Of a stretch of 64,000 nucleotides of DNA, positions 11,553-30,876 are shown piece by piece. Both the position numbers and the translations under genes were made by a program. The DNA comes from an uncultured Pseudomonadota bacterium (GTDB taxonomy: Bacteria; Babelota; Babeliae; Babelales; RVW-14): the NCBI GenBank assembly GCA_964388745.1, contig CAYMBP010000004.1:7430-71429 (forward strand), written 5' to 3'. A model generated the notes under the pieces. It saw only the letters and a list, made by a program, of their open reading frames with translations, did not search any database and was not told the origin of the DNA. Position 1 is the stretch's first letter; each line of letters begins with the position of its first letter.

Positions 11553-14495
11553 GTGATTATGAGCGATAAATCATCAAAAAACCCATATCAAAATACACTA
11601 AATCTTCCTACAACTACTTTTTCAATTAGGGCAAATGCAGCAGAAAAGGAGCCTGAAATTTTATCCTTTTGGAAAGAGCATAGTATTGCGCGTAAAGTTG
11701 TTGAAAGTAATAAAAAACAACCAACTTTTTTATTACATGATGGACCTCCATATGCCAATGGCCCCATTCATATTGGTCATGCATTAAATAAAACGCTTAA
11801 GGATGTAGTAGGAAAATCAAAACGAATGGCAGGATATCATGTACCATTTGTTTGTGGATGGGATTGTCATGGTTTGCCTATTGAGCTCAAAGTTGCAGCT
11901 CAACAAAAAGAAGAGGGTGATAATCGATCATTAAAGTCTCGTTGTCGAGCATATGCGCAAAAATGGATTGATCATCAAAAGCAAGAATTTGAAGATCTTG
12001 GTGTTTTTGCAGATGAAAAATATTACAGTACCATGTCATTTGAGTATGAAGCTGCAACAGTGAAAGCTTTAGCAAGTTTTGTACAACAAGGGTTTATTGA
12101 GCGGAAAGGAAAAACTGTACCATGGTGTGCTTCTTGTCAGACAGTGCTTGCTGTTGCCGAGATTGAGTATCAAGATCGCAAGGATCCTTCTTGTTATGTC
12201 AGGTTTGAATTAACGCTTGATGATGCTCAAATGCTTTTTCCTCTGTTGTTTGAACGAGAGCAAGAGTTAACAATAAGCTTGCTTGCTTGGACAACAACAC
12301 CATGGACTTTGCCACTGAATAGAGCTATTGTATTAAATCCTTCTGCTGAATATGTTTTACTCAAAGAGGCAGATTCTACGCATGCTGTTATCATTGCTGC
12401 TGATTTAGTAGAAGCACTTGCTCAATCAACGGGAAAAGAGTTAACAGAACTCTGTCGTCTTGACTCACTTCTTTTTCAAGGAAAATTCGTTAAGCATGCG
12501 ATTGATGAGAGCCTTATGGTTCCAATATTACTTGATGATGCTGTTTTAGTCGGTGAGGGGACTGCAGTGCTGCATACTGCACCTGGATGTGGACCTGACG
12601 ATTATCATTTAGCATTGAAACATGGTATTGAAATTTTTTCTCCGCTTTCAGCAGATGGATGCTATACTACAGGTATTCAACCAGAAGAACTCGTCGGAAT
12701 GAAGGTGGCAGATGGGCAATGGTGGGTACTCAAGAGACTTAAAGAGCGGGGGCTCTTATTTCATAAGGGTTCTATAAAGCACTCCTACCCTCATTGTTGG
12801 CGGTGTCATCAGGGTTTGATGTTTCGAGCTACGGATCAATGGTTTTGTGATTTGCAAAAAAATGGATTAGTTGAAAAGGCCTTAAAGCAAATTGGTGAAG
12901 CAACGTTTATTCCAGAATGGGGAAAGACGCGTCTTAAATCATTTGTAAGTAATCGTTATGAGTGGTGTATTTCTCGGCAACGTTCTTGGGGCGTTCCTAT
13001 TCCTGCGCTTATGTGTTCTCATTGTTCATGGACTTACATGAATCATCATTTTATAGAGTCTGTTGCTCAAGGGATTGAGAAAGAAGGTATTGAGTATTGG
13101 GATCATGTAACGCTTGAAGAGCTTAAAAAGGCTGGAGCGTTACCAAGTGATTTTTCCTGTGACCAGTGCCAGGAGAGTGAACTTACATCTTTTATTAAAG
13201 AAAAAGATACCCTTGATGTTTGGTTTGACTCTGGAGTGAGTCATTATGCTGTGCTCAATGAACAATTTGGCTTAACTTGGCCTGCAGATTTATATCTTGA
13301 AGGATCTGATCAGCATCGTGGTTGGTTTCAAAGCTCTCTGTTATGCGGGATGGTATTGTTTGGCAAAGCACCTTACAAGTCGGTTTTAACTCATGGCTAT
13401 GTGCTCAATGAAGATAAGCGAAAAATGTCCAAATCATTGGGAAATGTTATTGCTCCGCAAAATGTAATTGCAAAGTTAAGCCGAGATATTTTACGCCTAT
13501 GGGCTGTGACTGTTGACTATGAGCATGACGTAGTTATTTCTGAAAAGTTATTAAATAATGTTGCTGAAGTATATCGCAAATTAAGAAACACCGCACGATT
13601 TTTACTTTCAAATTTATATGACTTTAATGTTGAGCAGAATGCGGTTAATGTTAGTCGTATGAGTTTTCTTGATCAGTTAACTCTTGCTCGTTTATATGAG
13701 ATAAATCGTCAGGTTAAAAAAGCGTATGAAGAATATAATTTTGCAGCTGTTGTTCAGTTGCTTAATAATTACTGTGTTAAAGAGCTAAGTGCGTTGTATC
13801 TTGATATTGTTAAAGATCGACTCTACTGTGATAAACAAAATGGGGAGTCTCGTAAAGCTGCCCAAACCGTGTTGTTTGCTATTCTTGATACACTTGTTCG
13901 TTTGATGGCACCGATTACTTCATTTACCGCTGAAGAGATCTTTCAATCATATCGATCTGAAGGTTTGCCAGAGTCAGTTCATTTGTTATGGTTCAGCTCT
14001 GATGTTGATATTTGGGAACATTGTATGTACAAATTTTCTCATCTAAAAACCACTGCAATGATAAAGGAAGAAGATATATCTTTAGGAACAACAACGCGAG
14101 AACTCATGCTGATGGTGCAAGAGAAGTTAGATGATCTGAGAGGGTCTGTGCTTAAATCCCTTGAAAAGATCCGTGAGAAGGGAACAATCAAGCATTCGCT
14201 TGAAGCGAGTGTTGCTTTATATTTATCTGATAATGAGCCGGCAGTTAAGTTATTAAAAGAAATTCATGAGACTTATCAGCTAGGGTCACTTGAAGACTTT
14301 TTGAAGGACTGGTTTATTGTCTCTTCTGTTAAGCTTGTTGGGGTACAAGAAGGGCTAGAGGCAACTGAGCTTGATTGGTGTATGCTATTGACCAATCATG
14401 CGCAAGGAATCAAATGCCCTCGCTGTTGGCAATGGAGTGAAAATGCTGATGCTGAAAAACAGCTTTGTCAGCGGTGTTGTGAGGTCGTAAAATAG
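11553..14495 (+). CDS. ileS: isoleucyl-tRNA synthetase
   Basis: 980 aa with HDGPPYANGPIHIGHALNK (HIGH), KMSKSLGN and a C-terminal Cys cluster CPRCWQW...CQRCC. The track start is GTG at 11553; the ATG at 11559 with AGGA 8 nt upstream is an equally likely start. Confidence 0.95.
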   Translation: MIMSDKSSKNPYQNTLNLPTTTFSIRANAAEKEPEILSFWKEHSIARKVVESNKKQPTFLLHDGPPYANGPIHIGHALNKTLKDVVGKSKRMAGYHVPFVCGWDCHGLPIELKVAAQQKEEGDNRSLKSRCRAYAQKWIDHQKQEFEDLGVFADEKYYSTMSFEYEAATVKALASFVQQGFIERKGKTVPWCASCQTVLAVAEIEYQDRKDPSCYVRFELTLDDAQMLFPLLFEREQELTISLLAWTTTPWTLPLNRAIVLNPSAEYVLLKEADSTHAVIIAADLVEALAQSTGKELTELCRLDSLLFQGKFVKHAIDESLMVPILLDDAVLVGEGTAVLHTAPGCGPDDYHLALKHGIEIFSPLSADGCYTTGIQPEELVGMKVADGQWWVLKRLKERGLLFHKGSIKHSYPHCWRCHQGLMFRATDQWFCDLQKNGLVEKALKQIGEATFIPEWGKTRLKSFVSNRYEWCISRQRSWGVPIPALMCSHCSWTYMNHHFIESVAQGIEKEGIEYWDHVTLEELKKAGALPSDFSCDQCQESELTSFIKEKDTLDVWFDSGVSHYAVLNEQFGLTWPADLYLEGSDQHRGWFQSSLLCGMVLFGKAPYKSVLTHGYVLNEDKRKMSKSLGNVIAPQNVIAKLSRDILRLWAVTVDYEHDVVISEKLLNNVAEVYRKLRNTARFLLSNLYDFNVEQNAVNVSRMSFLDQLTLARLYEINRQVKKAYEEYNFAAVVQLLNNYCVKELSALYLDIVKDRLYCDKQNGESRKAAQTVLFAILDTLVRLMAPITSFTAEEIFQSYRSEGLPESVHLLWFSSDVDIWEHCMYKFSHLKTTAMIKEEDISLGTTTRELMLMVQEKLDDLRGSVLKSLEKIREKGTIKHSLEASVALYLSDNEPAVKLLKEIHETYQLGSLEDFLKDWFIVSSVKLVGVQEGLEATELDWCMLLTNHAQGIKCPRCWQWSENADAEKQLCQRCCEVVK

Positions 14496-14503: not shown

Positions 14504-15868
14504 TTACAATTTTTTCTTCAAGGCTGTCAGTTGGTCTTTTAATTTTTCAAGATTGGTTTTAAGCCCATTGAGTTTTTGACTAAGTGATTTTATATTATTT
14601 TCGAGCGCCTCTTGTCGTACAGTAATGTGCTGTGGAGTAAGAGGCGCTGCCATTTGTGCTGCTTTTTTGCTTGGTGGCAGCAGTGTTGCTCGTTTGTATA
14701 AAAGAATATAAGGGGTCCCTATTTCTTTTTCTTGTGCAGCAATGGCTTTAATTTCAGATTTCCCTGAGTATTCAGTAACGAAATCATCGTTAAATTTGCG
14801 CCATACTTCGTCGGGTCCTTGTCCGTAGGCCCAGTAGTGTCCACCCGTAAGATCTCCTTTGTGGCAGATGATAGCGGAGAGATTGTAGGGGATATATTCT
14901 TCGGATTGAAGGTAGTGGCCAAGGTTAATTATTAAAGGAAAATTAACAGGAGTATTGTTTTTTATTAATGTGGATCCAGTTATTTGAAAACGTTTTAAGC
15001 TGATAATAACATAATCTGAAATGCTGGAGAGGTAGGCCTTTCTTGAGAGTCGGTTCTTACTAGCAACAAGGGGATAGTATACTTTTTCTGGTTGTCCTTT
15101 ATTTTTTTTCTTCAAATTTAATGCTTTAAGTTCTTGTTTGAATTGTTCTATATGATCTTTGTAAACATAGTATTTCTCTTTCTCCTGATGATCGCAAATG
15201 CCAACATCAATTTTACCTAAAGATGTAATGTCAATAAACATTGTTGAAAAATAGGCTTTTAAAAGTGCCTCTAAGTTTTTTTCTATTTTATCAGGAATTT
15301 CTAGGGTAAGTATTGAACTGGACTCAGTTTTAAAACTTGATGTTCCGCAGTTTCCACATATTGTTTCAAATGTTTCTTCAAAGAATAGTATTTCTTTAAT
15401 TTGATTATTGTATTGAGTGAGGTAATCAATAAATTTATTTAAAAATTCATGGGCATCTTCTTGTCTGCCTTCAAAAAAAAGAGGTTTCTTTTCCCAATCA
15501 ACTAGCAATTTAAGCGCAAGAGCCTGCAGTTTTTTCACCTGATTATCTCGTACATCCTTTCTTGCTGATGATTTTACTAAGGGGTCTTCTAGGTGTTTAA
15601 TTCTGAGGTGATTATTAACAAGGTTTACATAGGTTTCAATGAGTTGGTCTGTAATTTGTTGACTGAGCTCTTCAGTCAGGTGTTCAATATTTGATAAGAG
15701 TTGTATTGAAGAGTTAAAATAGCAGCTATTACCGCAATTGAGCATGCCGTATTGTCGAGGAGATTTATCCCCAGCACCTCTTAATGACCAGAAACCTACG
15801 ATAAGAAAGCCTAAAAATTTACTCAGTTTCTTGAATTTTTGGCATTTCACAATCTGGACATTTGCCAT
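14504..15868 (-). CDS. USP/UBP-type (peptidase C19-like) deubiquitinase-like cysteine protease with C-terminal coiled coil
   Basis: Cys box GMLNCGNSCYFNSSIQLL. His box YNLSAIICHKGDLTGGHYWAY followed by FNDDFV. Own AAGGA Shine-Dalgarno lies inside the upstream gene. N-terminal hydrophobic FLGFLIVGFW. Confidence 0.8.
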   Translation of the reverse strand: MANVQIVKCQKFKKLSKFLGFLIVGFWSLRGAGDKSPRQYGMLNCGNSCYFNSSIQLLSNIEHLTEELSQQITDQLIETYVNLVNNHLRIKHLEDPLVKSSARKDVRDNQVKKLQALALKLLVDWEKKPLFFEGRQEDAHEFLNKFIDYLTQYNNQIKEILFFEETFETICGNCGTSSFKTESSSILTLEIPDKIEKNLEALLKAYFSTMFIDITSLGKIDVGICDHQEKEKYYVYKDHIEQFKQELKALNLKKKNKGQPEKVYYPLVASKNRLSRKAYLSSISDYVIISLKRFQITGSTLIKNNTPVNFPLIINLGHYLQSEEYIPYNLSAIICHKGDLTGGHYWAYGQGPDEVWRKFNDDFVTEYSGKSEIKAIAAQEKEIGTPYILLYKRATLLPPSKKAAQMAAPLTPQHITVRQEALENNIKSLSQKLNGLKTNLEKLKDQLTALKKKL

Positions 15869-16913
15869 ATCTCATTCCTTGATAATAATAATGCTTGCCA
15901 CTCTTTTTGAATAAACATGTTTTATGTACAACATGGCCACACCGATAAGTTCTTTTGTTAAAATAAGATCGTCGAGGAATGCTTTTGGTACATATTGCGC
16001 ATATATTTGATTGTTGCTCCTTATAGTCTTTGATTGTATCAAGAGTAACATGGTACACTAAGTTTTCAGAGATAGGGGCTTTTCCATCAGGCTGGTGTAA
16101 AATGTTTTTGATAATTGTATGAAGCAGTTTTTCTCGTTCTTGAGGAGGAATTCCTTGCTCTCTAATCTCTTCTTGAATGGCGATGCGAGCTGATTCAATT
16201 GACTCAAAAAAGAATTCACTTTTCTTTATTTTATTTCTTGAGCGCTTTGAGCGTGAAAGGCGCTTTTTTTCTCTAAGAGCTTCTTGTTCTGTTTTGTGAG
16301 CAAACTCATGAATGCTTTGGTCTGTTGCTGGATCTATGTTTTTAAGCCGATTAATAGCGTTATTAATGATAATTTTAATATTTCGAGAGCTGAGGGCTGG
16401 ATGGCCTGAAGTAAGCATTCGTTGATGAGCAAAAATATCTTCTTTAATTGATTTGTACAAGCTTCTTTTATAGGTGCGGATGAGTTCTGGTGATTCAATC
16501 TTCATATTGTCCATAATATATTGAGTAAGTGCAAATGATATTGCTTGACGAGCATATGGTACAAGAAACATCTCTTTTGGAGCACCTTTTTGATAATTGT
16601 GTGGAAAAGTAAGAAAAAGGTATTGCTTAAGCTGTTTTTTGATTTTTTTTACTTTTTTAGGAGTAAGTCGAGGTCCATAGTGTAAGAGCATCAGGCCAGT
16701 TTTATGAAGAAGGGCTTGTTGTGTAGTAGTTTCAATCTCTATATTAAATTCTTTGATAATAGTATTGGTATAAATTTTTATTTGTTTGAATGCATCTTGA
16801 AGACTTACCCTATTGTATAACCATGGATTTAAGTTACTCTGTACAGGCCAAAGAACCATCGGTGTATCAAGAATAATGAATGCTATAAGAATCAAGCATA
16901 TTTTTTTTATCAT
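15819..16913 (-). CDS. RING-H2 finger protein (E3 ubiquitin ligase-like) with N-terminal signal/TM segment
   Basis: The C-terminus reads C-x2-C-x16-C-x1-H-x2-H-x2-C-x18-C-x2-C (CAIC...CGHVVHKTC...CPDC), the canonical C3H2C3 RING spacing. GGAG Shine-Dalgarno 8 nt upstream. The 3' end overlaps the USP-like gene by 50 nt. Confidence 0.75.
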   Translation of the reverse strand: MIKKICLILIAFIILDTPMVLWPVQSNLNPWLYNRVSLQDAFKQIKIYTNTIIKEFNIEIETTTQQALLHKTGLMLLHYGPRLTPKKVKKIKKQLKQYLFLTFPHNYQKGAPKEMFLVPYARQAISFALTQYIMDNMKIESPELIRTYKRSLYKSIKEDIFAHQRMLTSGHPALSSRNIKIIINNAINRLKNIDPATDQSIHEFAHKTEQEALREKKRLSRSKRSRNKIKKSEFFFESIESARIAIQEEIREQGIPPQEREKLLHTIIKNILHQPDGKAPISENLVYHVTLDTIKDYKEQQSNICAICTKSIPRRSYFNKRTYRCGHVVHKTCLFKKSGKHYYYQGMRYGKCPDCEMPKIQETE

Positions 16914-16984: not shown

Positions 16985-17512
16985 CTACTGTCGAAGCTGA
17001 CTGTTTGTACTTTCAGCTGCTGCAAGAAGACGATCAATTTCTCGTAAAATATTTTGCATTTGATCAAATGCTGTTTTGACTTGAGTGTGGAGTACTTGAG
17101 CTCGTGTGATTTCAGCATTTGTCCGAGCCTCTTTTTTTGCATTCATTACAGCATTCATAATTTCAGTCATATTTTTTTCGGTAAATGCACGAGTATCACT
17201 AAATAATTGTTGTGATTTTTTAAGATTTTCAAGTGCAACATTCATTCGTTCATCTAGAAGTCTTTTTTCATTGATTAATGTTGTTATTTGTCGTTGCATT
17301 TCAATTGCTTGTGTGCGCGCAAGGTTAACAGCACTTTGAACTTTTGGCAGCTGCTGGGATTTTTGCTCAGCATTACGATATGATATAATCGCTTTTTCTT
17401 CTTGAGACTTCCATTCTTCTTTTTTTTGGCTATGAAGTGAAACATGAAAGCCTGAAATAAAAATAACAAAGAAGAGCATTCTCTCTTTGTCTGTTATTAT
17501 AAGATTCTTCAT
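16985..17512 (-). CDS. hypothetical secreted coiled-coil protein
   Basis: 175 aa. N-terminal MLFFVIFISGFHVSLHS; the rest is heptad-like and Gln/Glu/Lys-rich. Confidence 0.5.
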   Translation of the reverse strand: MKNLIITDKERMLFFVIFISGFHVSLHSQKKEEWKSQEEKAIISYRNAEQKSQQLPKVQSAVNLARTQAIEMQRQITTLINEKRLLDERMNVALENLKKSQQLFSDTRAFTEKNMTEIMNAVMNAKKEARTNAEITRAQVLHTQVKTAFDQMQNILREIDRLLAAAESTNSQLRQ

Positions 17513-17653
17513 AGACTGACTCCCCTTATTACAATAATTTTATTCTATTTATTTCATTATATTTTCTTAATTGTAATTTATTGCCTTAAGAAAAGTCAAT
17601 CAATTAATCATATATGAAATTTTTTATTCAGTTTTTAGTGGTGACAGAGAGGG

Positions 17654-18556
17654 TTAGAGGTCAGACTCATTGTTATAAAAAGCCTCTTCTTGCTCTACTG
17701 CATTAAGAAGCTTCTCTTTAGCTTTTTTAAGTTGCTTTTCTCCGTCAGTGCGTAGGAATTTTTTGATTTGATCAAGGTTTGCAACTTGTTGCTTGTAGGG
17801 GTTTTTGAGAATGGGGAAATATTTGTTCACGCAGACCTTCTCATTTTTTTGTAAAAATATAAGTAGATCTTTAATTGAATAGAATTTTTTTAAGTCTAGT
17901 TGTTCTATAGGTAAAGTTGTTTGTGTGTTGAGAATGGCAAGGTTAACGTCAAAAAGATAATCAGTAGCTTTAAGCTCTGCTAACAATTGTTTAAGGTGGG
18001 TATAATCTTTTTCTGGATATCGAAAAGTAAAGCTATCAATCTTCATTTCCATTTTTTTTATAAAAGCTGTGTCGTTTATTTTTAATTGGTTGCGTTGTTT
18101 ATACAGAAATTCAATTTGTCCTTCATATTGTTTAGAATAAAAGCTTAAAAAGTTTTTAATACGGTTTAAAATTTTTGCTCGTGTATTATCAGTTGGTAAA
18201 AGTTGTATTTCTTTATTATTAATTAAAACGTATGCTTTTGATGCAACCTCACCCACGAGATTTTCGGTTATATTAGCAGATCTATTTTGAATAGTAACGA
18301 GAACAGCAGGGGCTCGCTCTCGTTCTTCCATGGTACTTAATTTTGTTTTTTTCATAGACTGGAGAAGAATATTTACTCCAGCTGAAAAATCGCCTTCTGT
18401 ATAGAGTTTGTTGAGGTCTTGTAAGTTATTTCGACTTGCACTATTTATTGTATCCATGTAATGACTAGACCATGACTTAAACTCAGCAAAGCAAAAAGGA
18501 GTAAATGTAATAAAGCTGCAATAGATAATTATTTTTGTGGTATAAAAAGGCTTCAT
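17654..18556 (-). CDS. hypothetical secreted protein
   Basis: 300 aa with the N-terminal signal-like IIIYCSFITFTPFCFA. No family motif recognised. Confidence 0.5.
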   Translation of the reverse strand: MKPFYTTKIIIYCSFITFTPFCFAEFKSWSSHYMDTINSASRNNLQDLNKLYTEGDFSAGVNILLQSMKKTKLSTMEERERAPAVLVTIQNRSANITENLVGEVASKAYVLINNKEIQLLPTDNTRAKILNRIKNFLSFYSKQYEGQIEFLYKQRNQLKINDTAFIKKMEMKIDSFTFRYPEKDYTHLKQLLAELKATDYLFDVNLAILNTQTTLPIEQLDLKKFYSIKDLLIFLQKNEKVCVNKYFPILKNPYKQQVANLDQIKKFLRTDGEKQLKKAKEKLLNAVEQEEAFYNNESDL

Positions 18557-18585
18557 CTCCTACTCCTTCACATTACTACGAACGA

Positions 18586-19404
18586 CTATTGTTCATTTTT
18601 TTGCTGTTTTAAGTACTTATTTTTTATTTTTTTCATGGCAGGAACAAGGTGCTCTTTAATATATTGTTTTGCATGTGCAAGTGTAATGGTTTTTTGGGTA
18701 TCAAGATTTTTAAGGGCCTGAACTATATCTTTTTTATATAGGCCTTGATAGGGAGTCTGCTCCTTACCTATAACAAGAGCTTTTTTTAAGTCATTAACTG
18801 AATAGCTTGCGGTATTTGGAGCATCTTCTTTACTTATTTTAAAAGTCTCTTTTGCAATATTGAGAGGGGTGATGCGGATAGATTGCATGATCTTTTTTTT
18901 TTGTGTACGTAATGCCGCAAGTTTTTTTGCATCTAATTTGTTAATTTTTTCAATTTCATTTAGATTATTTTGATGATTTTTTTCAAGTTCTGTTTTTATT
19001 TTATCTGTAAGTTTGTTATATGCTTTTATATTGTTTCCAAGGATAGTTTTGCGATAGATGTTTCTCATTTTAGATAAAGTAAAAAGAGGCTCTTCATTAT
19101 TTTGAGGTGAAAAAACAATTATTTTTTCATTATTATTAAAGTTTTTAGGAAAAAGCTCTGAGCGTTGTTGTTGAAGGTCTTTGATGGATACGGTATTTTT
19201 TCTTTTTTTAGTATTTTTTCTTTTTTTTGCTTTTTTCTTTTTTTTTCTATTTAACTTCTTTTTTGCTTTTTCAAGTGTTGTTTCTTCTTCATTATTAATG
19301 TAATCATCAATCCCATCAGCTTGAAGTTGAGTTAGGGGTAAGGCCGTTTGTGTGCAAGTGAAAAGTATAAAAGCAATTAGATAGTGCTTGAATTGTTTAT
19401 TCAT
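18586..19404 (-). CDS. hypothetical secreted Lys-rich protein with NLS-like basic tract
   Basis: 272 aa. Signal-like YLIAFILFTCTQTALPL, then KKKLNRKKKKKAKKRKNTKKRKNT. The coding strand contains A10, A9 and A8 homopolymers. Confidence 0.5.
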   Translation of the reverse strand: MNKQFKHYLIAFILFTCTQTALPLTQLQADGIDDYINNEEETTLEKAKKKLNRKKKKKAKKRKNTKKRKNTVSIKDLQQQRSELFPKNFNNNEKIIVFSPQNNEEPLFTLSKMRNIYRKTILGNNIKAYNKLTDKIKTELEKNHQNNLNEIEKINKLDAKKLAALRTQKKKIMQSIRITPLNIAKETFKISKEDAPNTASYSVNDLKKALVIGKEQTPYQGLYKKDIVQALKNLDTQKTITLAHAKQYIKEHLVPAMKKIKNKYLKQQKNEQ

Positions 19405-19426
19405 TTTTTATTCCTTATACATAACA

Positions 19427-19483
19427 AAGCGCACATGTGATTTTGTAAGGGGTGGGAGCTTATTACAAATTACACGTGCGCTT
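19427..19483 (-). terminator. long imperfect hairpin between two minus-strand genes (probable terminator)
   Basis: AAGCGCAC...GTGCGCTT outer 8 bp plus about 12 further pairs, around a GGGGTGGGAGC loop. It lies 67 nt downstream of the stop of the 19550..20410 gene. Confidence 0.5.
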
Positions 19484-19549
19484 ATTTTTATGACAGTTTT
19501 TGGTTATTCCCACCCATAATTTTTGTTAACCTACTGTTCAAACATATTT

Positions 19550-20410
19550 TTATCGATGGCACTTTTTGAGCTTATTGCTACATTTTTTCCATTTTTTTTT
19601 GTGGTATTTTTTCCATGGAAAAAGAGTATACATAACTTTTTTGAGTTTTGTTTTTTCTTTGCATAGATTTTTTAACGTCTCATCATCTTTATATTTTTTC
19701 TTTATTGCATATGCTTGTTGCTTAAGATGCAGGTAAATATATTTTTTTCCACTTTTAAGATTGAGGTCACTTTCACTCTGGTCTAGGTGCTGAGCTATTT
19801 TAAGTTTTAATGCTTTTTCTTTAGCATTAGAGTTTAATTTTAATGGTGTATTCCACATGCCGCTTTTAAGCTGCTTCCAAACTTCATCAAAGGTATAAGC
19901 TTGATAGGCCTTAAAATTAAAATTTTTGAACGAAAGTTCTGTTGATAGTAGCTCATCTTTTATTTGATTTTTTTCTTGAAGAAGTTTTTTAAGAGCTTTA
20001 CCATCTTCCCTGTTGTAACTAGTGATGATGCTTAGCATAGAATCTTTGAGTCTATTTTTTTTATTTTTCCACTCTTGATAATAGTAGTCACTGGTGAGAC
20101 CAAGTTGGTTTACTCGAGCATTCCATAATGCTTCCCAAAGAACCGTTGCAGTTGGAGGAATTTGAGTATTATCAAATTTTATACTAATTTTTTTTGCATT
20201 ATTCCATTCTGGATTATCCTTGTAGTTGCAGTAACCATTTTTACTATTTTTTTTGTAATAGCAACGCTTTTTGCGGTTGTATCTGGAGGACTTATTCTTT
20301 TTTTTATGATGATGCCTCTGACCTTCGCTAGAGTGTTTACATAAAATTTTTTCAGGATTACTCATAAAAAAAGTTACAAGAAGGAGCAACTGTGATATTT
20401 TTTTATTCAT
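19550..20410 (-). CDS. hypothetical secreted Lys/basic-rich protein
   Basis: 286 aa. Signal-like ISQLLLLVTFFMS. Basic tracts HHHKKKNKSSRYNRKKR and the C-terminal KKYHKKKWKKCSNKLKKCHR. Confidence 0.5.
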   Translation of the reverse strand: MNKKISQLLLLVTFFMSNPEKILCKHSSEGQRHHHKKKNKSSRYNRKKRCYYKKNSKNGYCNYKDNPEWNNAKKISIKFDNTQIPPTATVLWEALWNARVNQLGLTSDYYYQEWKNKKNRLKDSMLSIITSYNREDGKALKKLLQEKNQIKDELLSTELSFKNFNFKAYQAYTFDEVWKQLKSGMWNTPLKLNSNAKEKALKLKIAQHLDQSESDLNLKSGKKYIYLHLKQQAYAIKKKYKDDETLKNLCKEKTKLKKVMYTLFPWKKYHKKKWKKCSNKLKKCHR

Positions 20411-20765
20411 TTTTTCCTTTCTTCCTACAAATTAAAAATAAAATTAGTCGAAGACATGTTGAAAAGACTGACAATCCAGTTGACATCGAGGTCAAGCACT
20501 CAGGGACTTTTTGTTCGTTTGAGGCCCGATACTGCACGATGCAGCAAAAGGAGAGTGTAATCTTCTCAACTTGTCTTTCTACTTTTAAACTACATAAAAG
20601 TATTACAAAAAAACAATAATTTTGTGTTTTTATATAAAAGAGGTAGGTGTTTACAGCGTGAGAATTGTCTTAATCTTATTATATAAGAGCTCTAAGTATA
20701 ATCTATTTTACACAAATATGGGGCTATTCCTCATTTAGATTTTTATGAGGTAGAAGGATGATATT

Positions 20766-20798
20766 GAGAAAAAAGATTGCAGCAATACAATCTTTTTT
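20766..20798 (-). terminator. rho-independent (bidirectional-looking) terminator after the 20842..22083 gene
   Basis: Stem AAAAGATTG (20771..20779) / CAATCTTTT (20788..20796), flanked by an A-run and a T-run. Confidence 0.6.
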
Positions 20799-20841
20799 AG
20801 TTCTATTGTCATTTTTTACAAATAATCCCATATGAAAAGAG

Positions 20842-22083
20842 TTAGCTTGCAGTTGCTTCAGGAATAATAAGACCTGAAACTTTTTTTAAGAGCTTGCTGA
20901 CTTGGCTCCTTTTTTGAGACCACTCGGTTGGCATGTTATTGGCAAGTGTATTAAGTTGGACTTGTAATTTTTGTTTAATTTGAGCAAGTTCTTGATTATC
21001 TTTAGCAGTAGGATCTTTAAGATTATTGAGAGCTCTCTCTAGGCTATTTGATGAGGATTCTATATTTTTAACAAGGCGAGATTCTTCTTGTTCAAAGAGG
21101 GATTTAAGCTTTTTATTTTCAATAAGATGTATTCCGTCATTTATAAGCATTGTCATTACTCGAGTGGCTGTAGGCTGATTTGGAGCTAGTGAAAAACGCA
21201 CAAGGTAAGGGGTTGCTTTATTAAGCTGAGCAATAAGATTTTTGTTTTCTGCTGAAAAATATTTTTTTTCAGCTTCGGGAAGCTCGTTAAGTTGTCGCAC
21301 ATAGCTGGATAAGCCTGAGGCAAGGCTTTCAAATTTATTTTGACTTGGCCGTTGAAGTTCTTCATATGCCGTCAGTAAATCTTTTTCAGGAGATGAGCTT
21401 TTTGTCTTGGTACTGATAATAGCGATAATGGTTGATAGGTCGTGATTAAGCTTTTTTACTATTTGTTGCAGTTGGTTTTCTTTTATCTCTTTTTCATCAT
21501 TACTTTTACTCTTTTTATTCTTATTTTTTGAGGTATAGCCTGGTGATGAAGGAGTGGTATTTGTTTTTTTTGTTTGAGGGGTTTGAATATTTTTGTTTTT
21601 TGATTGAGATGATTGTTGAAGTGGTTGTTTATTGAAAGCAGAGGAGTGTTCCTGATAAGGGCTTCGGCCAAAACCTCGATTAGATGAAGAAGGGCGTCCA
21701 CCACCAAAGGGTGAGTAACTTCCATAGCTGCTACGACCATGTCCGTATGAAGAGCCATATCCGCGTCCATATGAAGGCCTTCGTCCACTGCTGCGATTTC
21801 CAACAGAAGCACCTCTACTTTTGAGTCCTCCAGCCCCTACACGTTTTTGTTTTTGAGCTGCACTATCTTCTTGTTGCTTGATTCGTTTTTTTTCCGCCTC
21901 TATCGCTTGTATTGTGATTTTATCATTGCGAAGAGCGCTAAGTCGGCTAGTAATTGAATTGAGAGGTTGTAGTGCTCGCTCTGTCTCTTGTTCATAGGCA
22001 CTTACTAAAGGCTTTTGTGGTTGAGGTGATAATGTATAAACTATCGTATTTGTCATAAGAGCGATAATAAAAAGTAATGACAT
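20842..22083 (-). CDS. hypothetical secreted protein with RGG/SYG low-complexity region
   Basis: 413 aa. N-terminal MSLLFIIALMTNTIVYTLS. Central GRRPSYGRGYGSSYGHGRSSYGSYSPFGGGRPSSSNRGFGRSPY, followed by a Q/S/K/N/T-rich tract and a helical C-terminal half. Confidence 0.55.
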   Translation of the reverse strand: MSLLFIIALMTNTIVYTLSPQPQKPLVSAYEQETERALQPLNSITSRLSALRNDKITIQAIEAEKKRIKQQEDSAAQKQKRVGAGGLKSRGASVGNRSSGRRPSYGRGYGSSYGHGRSSYGSYSPFGGGRPSSSNRGFGRSPYQEHSSAFNKQPLQQSSQSKNKNIQTPQTKKTNTTPSSPGYTSKNKNKKSKSNDEKEIKENQLQQIVKKLNHDLSTIIAIISTKTKSSSPEKDLLTAYEELQRPSQNKFESLASGLSSYVRQLNELPEAEKKYFSAENKNLIAQLNKATPYLVRFSLAPNQPTATRVMTMLINDGIHLIENKKLKSLFEQEESRLVKNIESSSNSLERALNNLKDPTAKDNQELAQIKQKLQVQLNTLANNMPTEWSQKRSQVSKLLKKVSGLIIPEATAS

Positions 22084-22098
22084 ACAATATTCCTTTTT

Positions 22099-22932
22099 CT
22101 AGTATCCGCGGGGTGACCGATCGATTTTTTTCTGACGAATAGATGTGCGTCGTTCGATTGTACTCATTTGATCAAGTTTGGGGAGTGGAACTTTTATTTT
22201 TTTGAGTTGTTTATATGAGTCTTTGATATCTTGCTGTTTTATTGATGGTATTTTTTGTACCACTTTGCTTAGACTTTCAAACAATCCATAGATATCTTTT
22301 CTTAAAGAGACTCTCTCTTTATCTGATGAAAAAAAGGTTGTAAGATAGGCATTATGACTTGAAATTAACTCATATTCACTCTCAAATGTGTCGATATGCT
22401 GTTTGTAGCTTTGTTCAAATCGATCTTTAAAGCTCTGTGAAAAGACATCTCCTATAATAGCTGATTCGATAGTTCGCAGGTGCTCAACAAGATTACCCAT
22501 GTGGTAATGATATGCATGTTTTTTTAAGGAGGGTATTTCCTCTAATGTTTGCTTTGAATTTGAGCCTGTTTCTTTATTTGAAAGAGAATCAAGAAAGTTT
22601 GACTTTAGGTCATTTTTTTGAATTTTTACAGTCTGTTGAGGTAAAACAGTTTGAGGGATTTCATTGTTAGGAGGTGACCAGGTTGGTTCAGGAGAAGGGC
22701 TTTGCTGCTCTTTACGAAGCTCTTGCTCAAGTTCATTTTCTAATTCTTTAACAAATTCTCCAAAATCAAAATTTTCTCCAAACAGAGAGCCAAATGAAAA
22801 GGGGTCTTCGTTACCTTTAATCAAAGACTGTGTAAGAAGCATAGTTGTAATCAGTGCACAAAAAGAGATAATAATATTTTTATTACGGCGTAAAAGAGAG
22901 TTCATAGTGACTCCTCTTGTTTTTCCCCCCAA
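22099..22932 (-). CDS. hypothetical secreted protein
   Basis: 277-aa ORF. The likely start is at the internal MNSLLRRNKNIIISFCALITTMLL (nt 22905). It is followed 15 nt later by the next gene, so co-transcription is likely. Confidence 0.5.
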   Translation of the reverse strand: MGGKTRGVTMNSLLRRNKNIIISFCALITTMLLTQSLIKGNEDPFSFGSLFGENFDFGEFVKELENELEQELRKEQQSPSPEPTWSPPNNEIPQTVLPQQTVKIQKNDLKSNFLDSLSNKETGSNSKQTLEEIPSLKKHAYHYHMGNLVEHLRTIESAIIGDVFSQSFKDRFEQSYKQHIDTFESEYELISSHNAYLTTFFSSDKERVSLRKDIYGLFESLSKVVQKIPSIKQQDIKDSYKQLKKIKVPLPKLDQMSTIERRTSIRQKKIDRSPRGY

Positions 22933-23029: not shown

Positions 23030-23254
23030 ATGGCAAGGATTGTTTTTATGGTATCACATAATAAGTATCAAAACAAAAGGGGGTGGATTTTGTATGAACT
23101 TGCAGTGAGCATAGCAATTTTATCTTTTATGACAATAAGTATTATTTCTATGATAGGTTGTATAGAGATGCTATTTCAACAACAAAAGATGATTATTCAT
23201 AGAACGGAGCTTACGCATGAAAAGCAAAAAAAGGAAGGGGTCAAGCCTTATTGA
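23030..23254 (+). CDS. prepilin-type N-terminal domain protein (minor pseudopilin-like)
   Basis: KRG/WILYELAVSIAIL: Gly at -1, Glu at +5 and a hydrophobic helix, which is the class III (prepilin peptidase) signal pattern. Confidence 0.55.
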   Translation: MARIVFMVSHNKYQNKRGWILYELAVSIAILSFMTISIISMIGCIEMLFQQQKMIIHRTELTHEKQKKEGVKPY

Positions 23255-23714
23255 GTTATTTGTTGGTCTAGCAGGAGCTGTCAGCCTTTCGTTAATGCTT
23301 TGTCATTTGATTGTTTTTATTATGCAATATATCAAAGTTTCTCATCAAAAGGATAGTGAGCTTGATGCGCTTCTTGTTATTGATAGTCTCAAACGAGACC
23401 TGATAAGTGCTGTTCCCGCTCTTTCGATTAGCCAGCAAGGAGTATTCTGTTTACATGTTCTTGATTCAAAAAAAAGACCTATTGAAAAATTTATTAAGTG
23501 GGGGTGCAATGAATCAGGTCTTTTTCGCAAAGAGGGGAATTTCGATAGAAAAAAAGACTCTTTTTATGCCAACTCAACAATTATGATGCGTTGTCCTATT
23601 ACTTCATTGAGTATCAGTTTTAGTGATGGGAAAAGGGCACTTTGTTCTATTAATTATACAATTAGAGGTAATCAATATCAGACGAACACTTATATACTTA
23701 ATAAAATTTTTTAA
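23217..23714 (+). CDS. prepilin-type N-terminal domain protein (minor pseudopilin-like)
   Basis: KKRKG/SSLIELFVGLAGAV: Gly at -1, Glu at +5. Overlaps the previous ORF by 38 nt. Confidence 0.55.
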   Translation: MKSKKRKGSSLIELFVGLAGAVSLSLMLCHLIVFIMQYIKVSHQKDSELDALLVIDSLKRDLISAVPALSISQQGVFCLHVLDSKKRPIEKFIKWGCNESGLFRKEGNFDRKKDSFYANSTIMMRCPITSLSISFSDGKRALCSINYTIRGNQYQTNTYILNKIF

Positions 23715-23726
23715 AAGAGAGCAGCT

Positions 23727-24158
23727 ATGATTCAACGTGATGGTTTTTGCGTAGTGCTTGTTTTGCTTTCAATAACAATAATGATGGTGTTGTTAATGCA
23801 TGTTTGGGCACGACAATCATTGTCCATGTTGCTTTTACAGCATAGAGAATGTTTTTATGAAAAAAGGGACCTTCTTGCTAATGCGCTTTCTGTTGCCTGT
23901 AGACAATTAAAAAATAGGCAAGATCATGATGATCCTGGTCAGATTTCATTTATTACCAGTGATAAGGCACAAGTAAACGGAAGGAATTTTCAAGTGACAA
24001 CGTTGTTAAAGCTTGATGAAAAAAAGAAAGATCTTTATCTACTTAATATTGAATGCAAGGATAACGCTGGTAAAGAATTATCCTTGTCTGGCTTTTTATT
24101 ACGAAGGGCTGATCATGTTATTGCTGATTACATTACTCTCAGGCCTGGCATACGGTAG
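23727..24158 (+). CDS. pseudopilin-like protein lacking Glu+5 (GspK-like pattern)
   Basis: MIQRDG/FCVVLVLLSITIMMVLL: Gly then a hydrophobic helix with no Glu at +5. Third gene in the same run. Confidence 0.4.
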   Translation: MIQRDGFCVVLVLLSITIMMVLLMHVWARQSLSMLLLQHRECFYEKRDLLANALSVACRQLKNRQDHDDPGQISFITSDKAQVNGRNFQVTTLLKLDEKKKDLYLLNIECKDNAGKELSLSGFLLRRADHVIADYITLRPGIR

Positions 24159-27247: not shown

Positions 27248-28624
27248 ATGGCAGAGCCTACTGGTCAACTACGTGTATCATCTGTGCAGTCATCAACACC
27301 GTCGGTAACTGGTAGAGCAATGCCTGTAAGTATAGAGGCTGAAAAATCTGTACTTGCAGCTCTTTTATTAAATGATGACAACCTCACTCTTGTTGCAGAT
27401 TTTTTAAAACCTGTTGATTTTTCATTAAAATCGCATCAACTAATTTATCAAGCAATTCTTGATGTTGCTCAGCAGAGTCAAAAAGTTGATATTGTTGTAC
27501 TAAATGATTACTTTGAGCGGCAACAGCAAGTTGATGATATGGGAGGAGTGGGGTATCTTCTTGAGCTTCAAGAAGATATTCCTTCTGTTGGTCTTATTCA
27601 ACAACATGCAAAAATTGTTAAAGATAAAGCAATCTTGCGCCACTTAATTACTGCAGCTTCAGATATTATTGGTACTTGTTATGATAATAATATTGATGAA
27701 GTTGATGTTGTTCTTGACAAGGCTGAACAAAAAATATTTCAACTCGCGAGCAAGATAGCTCCACCATCATTTGTCCAGCTTAATGTTATTTTGAAGCAAG
27801 CTTTTCATAATCTTTCGCAAATGAAATCAACCCAGCAGGGTGTTACCGGTGTTTCAACAGGATTTGTGCAGTTTGATGAAATGACGTCAGGTATGCAAAA
27901 AAGTGATTTACTTATTTTAGCTGGCCGTCCATCAATGGGTAAAACTGCATTAGCTCTTAACATTGCTCTTAACTCATGGAGAAATGGTCATGCCGTTGGT
28001 ATTTTTTCTCTTGAAATGTCATCTGAGCAATTAGTGCTTCGTATGTTATCATCAGAGAGTTGCATTCCTTATCAAAAAATTCGGAATGCACAATTATCAT
28101 CTGAAGAATTTATGGAAATGACTGATACTGCAGCTCGACTAGCAGAAGCAAAAATATTTATAGATGATACGCCTTCATTAAATATTATGGAATTGCGAGC
28201 AAAAGCTCGTAAACTTAAGTCTCAAGTTGACCTTGAACTCATAGTTATTGATTACTTGCAGTTACTTAATTCACATCAGCGCCATGAAAATAGAACACAA
28301 GAAATTTCAGCTATCTCTCGTTCACTGAAGGCTCTTGCTAAAGAGCTTGATATTCCTGTGCTAGCCTTGTCTCAGTTATCTAGATCACTTGAAACGCGCA
28401 TGGATAAACGTCCTATGTTATCAGATCTTCGTGAATCTGGAGCGATAGAGCAAGATGGAGATGTTATATTTTTTGTTTATCGAGATGTGGTTTATAATCC
28501 AGATACAGAATATCCTGATCATGCAGAAATAATTATTGGCAAACAGAGAAATGGACCTGTTGGATCATTTCATGTTGGCTTTCATGGAGAAATTGCTCGA
28601 TTTGCTGATCTTCAAGGAGGATAA
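27248..28624 (+). CDS. dnaB: replicative DNA helicase DnaB
   Basis: 458 aa with PVSIEAEKSVLAALL, Walker A GRPSMGKTALALN, VIDYLQLL and QLSRSLE. Confidence 0.95.
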   Translation: MAEPTGQLRVSSVQSSTPSVTGRAMPVSIEAEKSVLAALLLNDDNLTLVADFLKPVDFSLKSHQLIYQAILDVAQQSQKVDIVVLNDYFERQQQVDDMGGVGYLLELQEDIPSVGLIQQHAKIVKDKAILRHLITAASDIIGTCYDNNIDEVDVVLDKAEQKIFQLASKIAPPSFVQLNVILKQAFHNLSQMKSTQQGVTGVSTGFVQFDEMTSGMQKSDLLILAGRPSMGKTALALNIALNSWRNGHAVGIFSLEMSSEQLVLRMLSSESCIPYQKIRNAQLSSEEFMEMTDTAARLAEAKIFIDDTPSLNIMELRAKARKLKSQVDLELIVIDYLQLLNSHQRHENRTQEISAISRSLKALAKELDIPVLALSQLSRSLETRMDKRPMLSDLRESGAIEQDGDVIFFVYRDVVYNPDTEYPDHAEIIIGKQRNGPVGSFHVGFHGEIARFADLQGG

Positions 28625-28647
28625 GCGTTAAAGAGGAAAGGATTGAA

Positions 28648-29154
28648 GTGAAAGAAGAGATTATTCTTGGAATTGACCCAGGATTTTCGGTAACAGGGTT
28701 TGGTGTTATTAAAAAAAATCATACAACAGCACAACTTAAAGATTGTGGTTATTTAAAAATGAAATCAACTGATAGCTTATCTAAGCGAATAGGGCAGTTT
28801 TATGATTTTTTTATTGAGAAAATTAAATTGCATGCAATAACAATGATAGCTTTAGAGACTCCATTTTTGGGAAAAAACACTCAGTCTTTTCTTAAGCTTG
28901 GCTATCTTCGAGGGATCTTATATTTGTTGGCAGAGCAGCATCAACTCTTATTATCCGAATTTGCCCCACGCCAGGTTAAAGCAGCCGTAACAGGTTCTGG
29001 TGCAGCAACAAAAGACCAAGTTGCCTTTATGGTCATGAGGCTTTTTCCTAAAGTTCAGGAATACAAAGCAGCTCAAAAACAAGACGTTACAGATGCTTTA
29101 GCTGTATCACTTTGTGGATTTTGGCATAGTCAGGCGCAACAACCGCGCGTATAA
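28648..29154 (+). CDS. ruvC: Holliday junction resolvase RuvC
   Basis: 168 aa with ILGIDPGFSVTGFGVI, ALETPFLGKN and the C-terminal DVTDALAVSLC. Confidence 0.9.
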   Translation: MKEEIILGIDPGFSVTGFGVIKKNHTTAQLKDCGYLKMKSTDSLSKRIGQFYDFFIEKIKLHAITMIALETPFLGKNTQSFLKLGYLRGILYLLAEQHQLLLSEFAPRQVKAAVTGSGAATKDQVAFMVMRLFPKVQEYKAAQKQDVTDALAVSLCGFWHSQAQQPRV

Positions 29155-29199
29155 AAAGAGAGAAGAGGTCTTTGATATGGTTTCTATTACGTTTTAAAT

Positions 29200-29662
29200 T
29201 TTTGATAATTTTTTGCTCCGATAATCGTTATTATGTAAACAATAGAGGGTAGGAATATTTTTAAAAGATTATTATAATGTTAAGAATAAAGACATTCGTG
29301 CCGTAGGCACGATAGGTTTCACAATACGCCTGACTCACTAATACTTATCAGTATTCCAGATCAACAGTCACAATAAAAAACAACAGAATTTACTTACGAT
29401 ACCATTTACATTACAAATTCAAACACAAAAACTCTCAATTAAAAGCAAAGACTTTACCCCTTATGCCCATGTTATTTATATTAATTTAACGATTACTGCA
29501 TCTGAACATCAACCAACCTCAAACCAATCGCACGTTAAATAACAAAATCAACAAAAATAACCTTCTCACGAAAAATAAAGAAAATAATCATAAAAAGAAA
29601 AGCTTTCGCTCCATCATCTAAGTTAAAAACTAAATACATATCGGAGCAAAAAATTATCAAAA
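29200..29662. repeat. 24-bp perfect inverted repeat bracketing a 415-bp non-coding, C>G-skewed segment
   Basis: 29200..29223 (TTTTGATAATTTTTTGCTCCGATA) is the exact reverse complement of 29639..29662. No ORF of 60 aa or more lies inside on either strand. The interior also has a perfect hairpin TCGTGCC-GTA-GGCACGA (29296..29312). Confidence 0.6.
29214..29241. other. candidate dif-like Xer recombination site
   Basis: TGCTCCGATAA-TCGTTA-TTATGTAAACA has the ATAA-N6-TTAT core. Its right arm matches the canonical XerD-arm TTATGT(T/A)AA. It overlaps the inner end of the left inverted-repeat arm. Confidence 0.3.
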
Positions 29663-29758
29663 GCTAATAAAAATAACAACTAAAAGACTCTTACTTTGTT
29701 AGTCAAATCTTATCGTTCACAGGACAGCAAGAACTTATCTATCAAATTTAAGGGTAAA

Positions 29759-30391
29759 TTATATCCAATAAATAACATTACCCAGCCTATCTCCTGTAGC
29801 AAAGCCTCTTCCATTAGGTGAAAATACAATTTTGGTAATATTTGTATGGTGGCCTTCAAGTATTTGATAATAATTTTCATTATCAAATACACCAATGAGT
29901 CCACTCTCAAATCCAACAATGAGTTGATTATTATTGGGGGAAAAAGCCATTGTACTTACTTTAGAGCCTTCTGGTATATCTATTTTCTTTCTGATTGTTA
30001 TATTGTTTTCAGTAATTAAAATATTATTTTTATATACAAAGGCACAAACTCCATTATTAATTATATTATCAATAAGACGAGGCTTTTTGTGTTGAGGGGG
30101 ATTACATGCACAAATCCATTTTCCACTGATTAAACAAAAAGTTTCCATTTCTATAGAATTAGTAACACGTATTTTTTGTGATTCAAGGAAAAATTCTATA
30201 TCAATAACAGGATCTTGATCAACTGTTGTGTGAGATGACTTAAATGTCGTACAATGTCGATATAATACGCTTTGCTCTTGTTTTCCTGAAGAGCTACACT
30301 TTATAGAGTCTAATAACTGATTTTTCATTGAATGAAGCAACAAAGCTGGCATAAAAGAAATAATAAGAAATAATAATAATTTCATTATCAA
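29759..30391 (-). CDS. secreted WD40-repeat-like mini-protein
   Basis: 210 aa. Signal-like MKLLLFLIISFMPALLLHS. The C-terminus KVSTMAFSPNNNQLIVGFESGLIGVFD...LEGHHTNITKIVFSPNGRGFATGDRLGNVIYW matches the WD40 GH...FSPdG...D..i..W pattern. Confidence 0.6.
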   Translation of the reverse strand: MIMKLLLFLIISFMPALLLHSMKNQLLDSIKCSSSGKQEQSVLYRHCTTFKSSHTTVDQDPVIDIEFFLESQKIRVTNSIEMETFCLISGKWICACNPPQHKKPRLIDNIINNGVCAFVYKNNILITENNITIRKKIDIPEGSKVSTMAFSPNNNQLIVGFESGLIGVFDNENYYQILEGHHTNITKIVFSPNGRGFATGDRLGNVIYWI

Positions 30392-30876
30392 ATTCCTTAT
30401 AAAATGTTAAAAATAAGTTCTTTTTATTAAGAAAATTGATTATATAAGTTGTTATCATGCAATATATTTTTTTTTTTAATCAAATAATTTATAAAGTTCT
30501 TTATTTTCAAAAGATATAATTGATAATTTTGTTATAAAGAAATTTGTTGATTAAAAAGTGTCTCTTAGGCTTGTTCAATTATTTGCTCAATAAGCTGAGC
30601 AACGAACATTACATATGCTAAGCACTGATCATTATTCATATTAATCACAGCATACTTGCTTAGTCCAAACTTTTCCTTTATAAGATAGCGCAAAAACTTT
30701 AGTTGTATTTTTTGCTCTATCTTCTTTGTCATTAGAATAGGACTCAAGAATGAAGCTTGATTTTTTATATCAATTGAGAGAAGATTTTAGCTTTTGCTCA
30801 AGTGCTTAATAAAGAAAACCACTCACAATAAAAAAGTAAATAAAAATAATTGTCAAGGTGTTGATTTCATTTTTCA

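Follow-up and report, generated by a model that had tools for sequence, protein, structure and literature searches.

What do a RING-H2 finger protein and a ubiquitin-specific protease (USP), encoded side by side, do in a bacterium? The two genes lie on the minus strand of a 64,000-nucleotide (nt) stretch of DNA from an uncultured bacterium (contig CAYMBP010000004.1 of assembly GCA_964388745.1, positions 7,430 to 71,429), which was analyzed at its full length and is called the window here. An earlier interpretation of the letters alone (the sequence-only reading) had seen in the pair a ubiquitin writer/eraser cassette with translationally coupled genes. As a description of the gene content this name is fair; as a function it is plausible but unproven. 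On balance, we consider it likely that the pair encodes co-transcribed, exported, eukaryote-like effectors of the ubiquitin system, belonging to an obligate intracellular bacterium of the Dependentiae (TM6). The two open reading frames (ORFs), their overlap of 50 nt, the position of the last RING cysteine pair within it and the Shine-Dalgarno-like motif of the USP gene inside the RING gene were all found as the sequence-only reading had described them:

15819..16913, minus strand: gene of the RING-H2 protein (364 amino acids, aa), an ORF with a signal-like N-terminus, an all-alpha domain of about 270 aa and a C-terminal RING-H2 finger
14504..15868, minus strand: gene of the USP/C19 deubiquitinase-like protein (454 aa), an ORF with a predicted signal peptide, a USP catalytic domain and a C-terminal coiled coil
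15819..15868, minus strand: overlap of the RING 3' end and the USP 5' end (50 nt), holding the last RING Cys pair and the n-region of the USP signal peptide
15876..15880, minus strand: Shine-Dalgarno-like motif AAGGA, 7 nt upstream of the USP ATG and within the RING coding sequence

The USP and RING-H2 domains

The downstream gene is firmly assigned, by its sequence, to the complete cysteine proteases of the USP/C19 type. Its product matches the Pfam family UCH (PF00443) with E=2.1e-36 and 126.3 bits (cut-off 23.9), the alignment covering positions 2-254 of the 254 in the model. The PDB entries of USP15 and USP2 are matched at E of about 1e-13 with both signature boxes aligned. Both boxes named in the sequence-only reading are present, together with a third one and a C-terminal tail:

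15695..15748, minus strand: Cys box GMLNCGNSCYFNSSIQLL, residues 41-58, with the oxyanion-hole residue N44 and the catalytic C49 (codon 15722-15724)
14825..14887, minus strand: His box YNLSAIICHKGDLTGGHYWAY, residues 328-348, with the catalytic H344 (codon 14837-14839) in GGHYWAY
14777..14803, minus strand: third catalytic box WRKFNDDFV with N360/D361, aligning with the F(N/D)D motif of USP2 and USP15
14507..14614, minus strand: coiled-coil-like tail, residues 419-454, with a heptad L/K pattern and weak coiled-coil matches in Pfam

N44 and C49 in GMLNCGNSCYFNS align with the GNTCFMNS of USP15 and USP2, the Asn standing five residues before the catalytic Cys. This Cys is kept in 7/7 related USPs, and the six of full length all keep the G-H-Y of the His box and the Asp/Asn box (KFNDD). 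The fingers zinc ribbon has one CxxC (residues 171-174), its second pair being replaced by C-D-H.

The upstream gene encodes two parts behind its N-terminus:

16014..16817, minus strand: family-specific all-alpha domain, about residues 33-300, modelled by AlphaFold with a 5-sequence alignment (predicted local distance difference test, pLDDT, of the helices about 65-89)
15849..16001, minus strand: RING-H2 finger, C305-x2-C308-x16-C325-x-H327-x2-H330-x2-C333-x18-C352-x2-C355

The C3H2C3 spacing that had been claimed for the C-terminus is exactly present, in ligand order and in distances (CAIC-x16-CGH-x2-H-x2-C-x18-CPDC, residues 305-355). A search of the six-frame translation of the whole window with the pattern C-x2-C-x9-39-C-x1-3-H-x2-3-H-x2-C-x4-48-C-x2-C gave this finger as its sole match. 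The motif was reproduced in 0 of 200,000 residue shuffles of the protein, and 6 of the 7 Cys of the protein fall in it. A word-indexed search with the RING protein returned the query only. Its standing as an orphan was overturned by an exhaustive HMMER scan of 1.84 billion representatives, which found two relatives, and a profile search added three more to give a six-member RING family in the Dependentiae. The members share 21-34% identity with the window protein. The eight zinc ligands, whose loss among homologues had been named beforehand as grounds for giving up the RING assignment, are invariant in 6/6 members, as are the HKTCL helix start and the CPxC.

Comparison with known families points in the same direction. 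Pfam models of the RING clan (5-10 per sequence) match all five members tested with a best E of 4.6e-5, all of them below the gathering score. A family profile of the finger region was compared with the PDB, and RING-H2 ubiquitin ligases (E3s) make up most of the top 20 with E from 1.5e-3 and all eight ligands aligned. Synoviolin and ARK2C/RNF165 (E=1.5e-3) are at the top, and Arkadia, ZNRF3, PEP5, RNF24, AMFR and RNF13 are also matched. The family weakly matches PHD-like models as well; the ligand order and spacing (C-x-H-x2-H) agree with RING-H2 and not with PHD. Two of four features that engage the ubiquitin-loaded conjugating enzyme (E2~ubiquitin) are kept in the family. These are the Pro after C7 (CPxC) and the hydrophobic residue (I/V/L) before C2, for which a role in E2 contact is described (PMC12591485). 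The gene is under strong purifying selection, with a dN/dS of 0.07 at a dS of about 1, near saturation, between the orthologues of two related loci (L008 and L009, see below). The C-terminal finger is thus classified as RING-H2 from sequence and conservation.

The all-alpha domain belongs to no Pfam family and has no PDB match by Foldseek. It may be the part which binds targets or membranes. Residues 87-158 of the RING protein resemble the SAVED-domain (SMODS-associated) structure 9r8s_A of the PDB (E=0.018 with the single sequence, 0.004 with the family profile). This similarity is short, helical and Lys-rich and lacks supporting context, and it was treated as a probable chance match.

Probable operon structure, synteny and predicted export signals

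How the two genes are joined was analyzed at the level of the start signals. The codons of C352 and C355 (15849-15860) lie inside the overlap. The RING stop codon (15819-15821) is directly followed by the hydrophobic core of the USP, which begins at 15817. The overlap therefore codes only for USP residues 1-17, a basic n-region without counterpart in the homologues. Shine-Dalgarno-like motifs were found at -16 to -7 before 26 of the 47 ORF starts of the window, so that the position of the AAGGA is usual here. The sole other USP start upstream of the Cys box is a GTG at 15850, from which the overlap would still measure 32 nt. A start at M42, leaving no overlap, was rejected because all homologues have a signal peptide right before the Cys box; it is also disfavoured by the Shine-Dalgarno-like motif ahead of the ATG at 15868. 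A scan for promoters and terminators gave sites no more numerous than in shuffled sequence.

Using the contigs of all RING homologues, the window was compared with five further RING-USP loci (L007-L011) and with a RING homologue lacking a USP (L012). The gene orders of the five loci are:

L007 (Logan): RING gene, then USP with ankyrin repeats
L008 (NCBI GCA_018266175.1): RING gene, then long USP, then short USP
L009 (Logan): RING gene, then long USP, then short USP
L010 (2-kb contig): RING gene, then truncated USP
L011 (JGI): RING gene, then USP with ankyrin repeats

The USP genes at L007-L011 all score above the Pfam UCH cut-off. RING and USP genes share a strand in all six loci, and the distance from the RING stop to the USP start is -50 nt in the window, -4 nt in L007, +12 nt in L011, +27 nt in L010 and +30 nt in both L008 and L009. 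Since the spacing ranges from -50 to +30 nt, the operon organization is conserved and the overlap is not. Judged from this arrangement, the two genes probably form one co-transcribed operon. The 50-nt overlap is unique to the window among the six loci, which speaks against the translational coupling that the sequence-only reading had derived from it; this part of that reading is not supported. On the simplest reading, the overlap would be an incidental feature of this lineage, a by-product of a USP signal peptide extended at its N-terminus. Recruitment of an upstream ATG with a usable Shine-Dalgarno motif would have lengthened a tolerant part of the signal peptide, and no designed coupling device would be needed.

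The wider region of these loci is syntenic with the window. It includes dnaB, rplI, a Lnt-like gene, small divergent genes, a gene for a secreted protein of 277-287 aa, the RING gene, the USP gene and the convergent ileS, which served as the anchor:

11553..14495, plus strand: ileS, convergent with the USP gene at a gap of 9 nt

L007-L011 belong to one clade (clade A). Among themselves their ileS genes share 88-92% identity, against 55-57% with the ileS of the window, so that the five loci amount to a single independent case. The linkage of the pair in relatives, which the sequence-only reading had raised as a test, is accordingly found in part, as the genes are adjacent in this second, distant clade and not in L012. 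Upstream of the pair lies an island of genes for secreted proteins (described below). For its interior genes, no homologues were detected between the window and clade A, which indicates a quick turnover of the island, yet RING and USP were kept together. The adjacency of USP and ileS is about as conserved as that of RING and USP. Regional synteny alone could therefore explain the linkage, and synteny by itself cannot show functional coupling.

L012 carries the closest RING homologue (P0014) and shares with the window the 300-aa and 175-aa genes upstream of it. Downstream of its RING gene are found a 205-aa C3HC4 RING-like protein, a toxin-antitoxin pair of the MNT/HEPN type and Hen1. The RING-like protein (L012:9246-9863, also L013:1971-2627) is a second and unrelated one with the spacing C-x2-C-x19-(C)-x-C-x3-H-x2-C-x2-C-x7-C-P-x-C (C3HC4). 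It has a hydrophobic N-terminus and a hydrophobic C-terminal half and is without homologue in the window. A scan of viral contigs with the RING family found no relatives.

On the USP side, a word-indexed search with the window protein gave only eukaryotic USPs at about 25% identity, whereas direct comparison with these loci revealed bacterial relatives. The window protein is the full-length orthologue of the short USPs L008:11351-12682 and L009:11465-12661, and the coiled-coil tail is common to these three. The USP partner varies within clade A, being either ankyrin-fused or a long plus a short protein (L008:9069-12682, L009:9063-12661, L007:9077-11506, L011:6937-9333). The short USPs of L008 and L009 are 35% identical and the adjacent RING proteins 88%. 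The deubiquitinase (DUB) side of the pair evolves very fast. ATPase genes are located between the USP genes and ileS at L008:12864-14531 (AAA-ATPase_like/PDDEXK_9) and L011:9450-10685 (AAA_14/DUF4143), and the junction between USP and ileS looks like a hotspot of insertions.

Both proteins begin with the hydrophobic segment that had been noted from the sequence, with Kyte-Doolittle maxima of 3.7 and 2.1:

16869..16901, minus strand: h-region ICLILIAFIIL of the RING protein, residues 5-15 after MIKK, 11-residue maximum 3.73
15782..15817, minus strand: h-region FLGFLIVGFWSL of the USP signal peptide, residues 18-29, followed by RGAG

The USP maximum of 2.1 (11 residues) is at residues 19-29. The N-terminus of the RING protein is probably a Sec signal peptide or a signal anchor. 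An n-h-c N-terminus which ends a few residues before the Cys box, e.g., MKSIRVLVAIFSIFLSTGQAGA before INRG, occurs in all seven related USPs. Every RING homologue has a basic plus hydrophobic N-terminus, and the hydropathy peaks are at the N-termini only. All eight island proteins of the window begin with a hydrophobic segment. In Babela, C19 hydrolases are described as secreted, and the type II secretion system (T2SS) was the sole secretion system detected (PMC4378268). T2SS components are also core genes of TM6 genomes (PMC4776705), and 44% of the Chromulinavorax proteins carry signal sequences (PMC6561590). TssM is a USP secreted by a T2SS (PMC10719079). From the signal-like N-termini together with the Babela, TM6 and TssM literature we infer that both proteins may be exported by Sec and type II secretion.

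Proposed function and competing explanations

The pair belongs to a bacterium of the Dependentiae (TM6). At 51-58% identity, the ileS genes nearest to that of the window come from metagenome-assembled genomes (MAGs) of Candidatus Dependentiae/Babeliales or from MAGs loosely labelled Pseudomonadota, and NCBI lists one RING homologue under Candidatus Dependentiae bacterium. Members of this phylum are obligate intracellular parasites of protists (PMC6561590, PMC4378268, PMC4776705). In the function proposed here, both proteins would cross the inner membrane via Sec and then leave the cell by the T2SS. Inside the protist, E2~ubiquitin of the host would be recruited by the RING finger and the targets would be picked by the all-alpha domain. 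The USP would take ubiquitin off conjugates, in the simplest case host ubiquitin which was deposited on the parasite or its compartment. We judge that the linkage of the genes serves mainly the co-regulation of two effectors of host ubiquitin. Direct antagonism on shared substrates is possible, and the self-limiting or substrate-editing mechanism of the sequence-only reading is purely conjectural.

Several observations weigh against this proposal. Delivery into the host cytosol is an assumption, and the signal peptides were judged only by eye and by hydropathy. Adjacency of the pair is found in only two independent lineages out of three deep ones, and at L012 no USP lies within 3.1 kb downstream of the RING gene. 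Six Dependentiae-like MAG ileS loci (51-58% identity) have neither a USP nor a RING gene in their 10-kb flanks; the RING-USP cassette is therefore clade-restricted. The remaining points concern the finger. No Pfam RING model reaches its gathering score, the best value of the window protein being 18.9 against 27.3 bits. The profile check confirmed the USP (E=2.1e-36) and left the RING domain below the threshold. AlphaFold gave an overall pLDDT of 40 for the single sequence and of 64 with the 5-sequence alignment. The finger (residues 313-364) stayed below 50 in both runs, so that its cross-brace fold is unconfirmed, and Foldseek found nothing in the PDB at E <0.3 with the model of the RING protein. 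The structural comparison proposed earlier hence failed for the RING protein, and because AlphaFold fails on the finger and Pfam stays sub-threshold, its RING membership is a matter of sequence alone. The helix Trp of active RING E3s is also missing, with K/N at its position in the family, and so is the linchpin Arg, the residue after C8 being E, M, I, A, V or G.

The lack of these two residues, the long loop of 18 residues between ligands 6 and 7, the sub-threshold Pfam scores and the weak PHD-like matches would fit a finger that is RING-like but no ligase. It would then be a zinc-stabilised binding module, which sequesters host E2 or ubiquitin or acts as an anchor, and the USP alone would be enzymatic. 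The C-x-H-x2-H order and spacing, which are those of RING-H2 and not of PHD, are at odds with this, as are the active RING-H2 E3s that head the PDB profile matches over all eight ligands. The E2-contact hydrophobic residue and the Pro are conserved. Moreover, SneRING is active despite atypical ligands and without the canonical hydrophobic contact (PMC12591485). We regard a non-catalytic finger as improbable.

In a true writer/eraser module, the RING E3 and the USP would have common substrates or act on one another. Chains assembled by the RING protein could, e.g., be trimmed or edited by the USP, or the USP could protect the RING protein from autoubiquitination, as in eukaryotic E3-DUB pairs, with the operon fixing the stoichiometry. 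For such a module speaks that RING and USP have remained neighbours in lineages whose ileS genes share only about 55% identity and whose island interior was fully turned over, and that the spacing is tight or overlapping in 6/6 loci. The Cardinium authors independently proposed a USP with a 'counteracting ubiquitin ligase' (PMC3486910), and effector pairs are known in Legionella, e.g., the SidE-family ligases and DupA/DupB (PMC6941232). However, the USP partner is not fixed. It is a short coiled-coil protein in the window, ankyrin-fused at L007 and L011 and represented by two USPs at L008 and L009, while L012 has no adjacent USP at all. The similarly conserved USP-ileS adjacency means that regional synteny could suffice, and neither the overlap nor translational coupling is conserved. 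No RING-USP fusion protein or interaction evidence was found. A module of this kind seems rather unlikely to us. The more specific version, a co-secreted, operon-encoded E3-DUB machine in which the USP edits or limits RING-made chains or shields the RING protein from autoubiquitination, and in which this coupling is the selected reason for the linkage, is unlikely.

An endogenous system for conjugation of a ubiquitin-like protein or for defence (Bil-, CBASS Cap2/Cap3- or Bub-like), in place of host manipulation, would have the weak SAVED-like similarity of residues 87-158 to 9r8s_A as its sole support. The neighbourhood holds no E1, E2 or ubiquitin-like gene, PADLOC gave no match for the eight island proteins, and both proteins carry predicted export signals. 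The proteases known from bacterial ubiquitin-like conjugation and defence systems are of the JAB type and do not have the USP fold, which also counts against such a system. We consider it very improbable. An artefact, i.e., eukaryotic contamination, a chimeric assembly or decaying pseudogenes acquired horizontally, might be suspected from the plant and insect proteins (about 25% identity) that are the best USP matches outside the Dependentiae in the word-indexed search, and from both window proteins being singletons at 90% clustering. It would have to account for intact ORFs with bacterial Shine-Dalgarno-like motifs set between ileS and a syntenic bacterial block, for the same arrangement assembled independently from NCBI, Logan and JGI data, for purifying selection and for a GC content matching the flanks. 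This is hardly conceivable. The reading of the pair as exported effectors acting on host ubiquitin is retained as the likely one.

Genomic surroundings and comparison with known systems

Upstream of the RING gene lies a run of orphan genes, and the RING-USP pair closes this island of secreted-protein genes:

16985..22932, minus strand: six same-strand orphan genes (175, 300, 272, 286, 413 and 277 aa) with hydrophobic N-termini and no Pfam family

Many of the products are Lys-rich, and low-complexity stretches of poly-Lys or Gly/Ser/Arg occur in several. Of the six genes, that for 277 aa is conserved in clade A and those for 300 and 175 aa in L012. Within the island the GC content dips to 0.30 and the AT skew is strongly negative; the GC content of the window is 30-40%. 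Small genes diverge from the island in the window (23217-24158, plus strand) and at L007 (2777-4166, minus strand), one of them with a prepilin-like KGSSLIEL start. They show sub-threshold matches to the minor pseudopilin GspK (E=0.029) and the minor pilin ComGF (E=1.6e-4) and may be minor pilins of a T2SS or a type IV pilus beside the secreted-protein island.

Around the pair, the window has the content of an ordinary bacterial chromosome, with the housekeeping genes pgk, rpiB, ileS, rplI, dnaB, ruvC, proS, an xerC-like gene, recF, dnaN, gmk, the RNase Y gene, infC, recA, miaA and carD. Scans of the window with Rfam and for tRNAs found nothing. Two ankyrin-repeat proteins (57786-60092, plus strand; 60753-61661, minus strand) and a possibly fragmentary WD40-repeat ORF that starts with TTG (29759-30391, minus strand) are further eukaryote-like interaction domains typical of Dependentiae and provide a host-interaction context. 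The cumulative GC skew peaks at about 30-40 kb, where dnaN and recF (33478-35711, minus strand) lie beside a non-coding gap of 840 bp (35712-36553). No dnaA was seen beside dnaN in the window. The region 28000-40000 may be the replication origin region. Two tandem paralogues of M17 leucyl aminopeptidase (565 and 547 aa, both E about 1e-111) are located at 36554-39971 on the plus strand.

In the literature searched, no description of this RING-H2 family, of its all-alpha domain or of an operonic RING-USP arrangement was found. The claim that the arrangement is undescribed holds for the operon and not for the combination, since both domain types and their coexistence in one symbiont are already published for Babela and Cardinium (PMC4378268, PMC3486910). 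Very few bacterial deubiquitinases of the USP type, and very few bacterial RING ligases, have been studied. To these, the locus adds a previously unrecognised RING-H2 family under strong purifying selection, USPs with predicted signal peptides in a phylum reported with type II secretion only, and an operon of RING followed by USP that recurs. The pair is small and amenable to experiments on the questions whether parasites use opposing ubiquitin activities as a unit and how substrates of Sec and the T2SS reach host ubiquitin. If the E3-DUB coupling were true, this would be the first bacterial ubiquitin writer/eraser operon with canonical eukaryotic chemistry and type II delivery. If the proteins prove to be independent, they are simply one more instance of the eukaryote-like effectors described earlier in Babela.

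Among known systems, the SidE family of Legionella with DupA/DupB (PMC6941232) shares the concept of one pathogen encoding activities that attach and remove ubiquitin in sequence. In the Legionella pairs the antagonism is demonstrated, but their chemistry is non-canonical and their folds are bacterial, whereas the window has canonical eukaryotic folds and antagonism as a hypothesis only. MavC/MvcA is another writer/eraser effector pair of Legionella. The best sequence matches are eukaryotic, namely the RING-H2 E3s synoviolin/HRD1, Arkadia/RNF111, ARK2C/RNF165 and RNF38 as well as USP2 and USP15, with the same ligand spacing and catalytic boxes. They differ from the window proteins at an identity of about 25-30%. 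In the window RING, the helix Trp and the linchpin Arg are absent and the 6-7 loop is longer, and both window proteins bear predicted bacterial signal peptides.

Burkholderia TssM was described as the only biochemically characterised bacterial USP-type deubiquitinase (PMC10719079). Like the window USP it has a catalytic domain of the USP family, an N-terminal hydrophobic region and, as predicted for the window, a type II route of export in place of a type III, IV or VI secretion system. It is without Fingers subdomain and has an Ig-like domain, whereas the window USP has a full-length UCH domain with one fingers CxxC and a C-terminal coiled coil. We know of no RING neighbour of TssM. RING/U-box families occur in Parachlamydiaceae. 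SneRING (SNE_A12920) of Simkania negevensis is an active E3 with host E2s and was presented in 2025 as the initial characterisation of a bacterial RING ligase (PMC12591485). Like the window family, it is a RING protein of the eukaryotic type from a bacterium living inside protists. Its RING is N-terminal and atypical in its ligands (His and Asn substitutions), its C-terminal domain is alpha/beta, and its biology is that of type III secretion. The window family, in contrast, has a C-terminal canonical C3H2C3 finger, an all-alpha N-terminal domain and a predicted Sec signal. No sequence relationship was detected between SneRING and the window RING family.

In Cardinium hertigii, the RING-like CAHE_p0026 and the USP CAHE_0028 were discussed as counteracting activities (PMC3486910). 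This bacterium belongs to the Bacteroidota; its RING gene is on a plasmid and its USP gene on the chromosome, neither adjacent nor in an operon. For Babela massiliensis, three C19 ubiquitin C-terminal hydrolases (COG5533), described as secreted, and a single RING finger protein (COG5574) were reported (PMC4378268). It belongs to the same phylum as the window and has the same two domain types, the same predicted secretion and the T2SS as its sole secretion system. The likeness to the window family is drawn from the description of the domains, the order of the RING and C19 genes not being reported there (PMC4378268). By this analogy, the Babela proteins and the window pair are probably the same kind of effector set.

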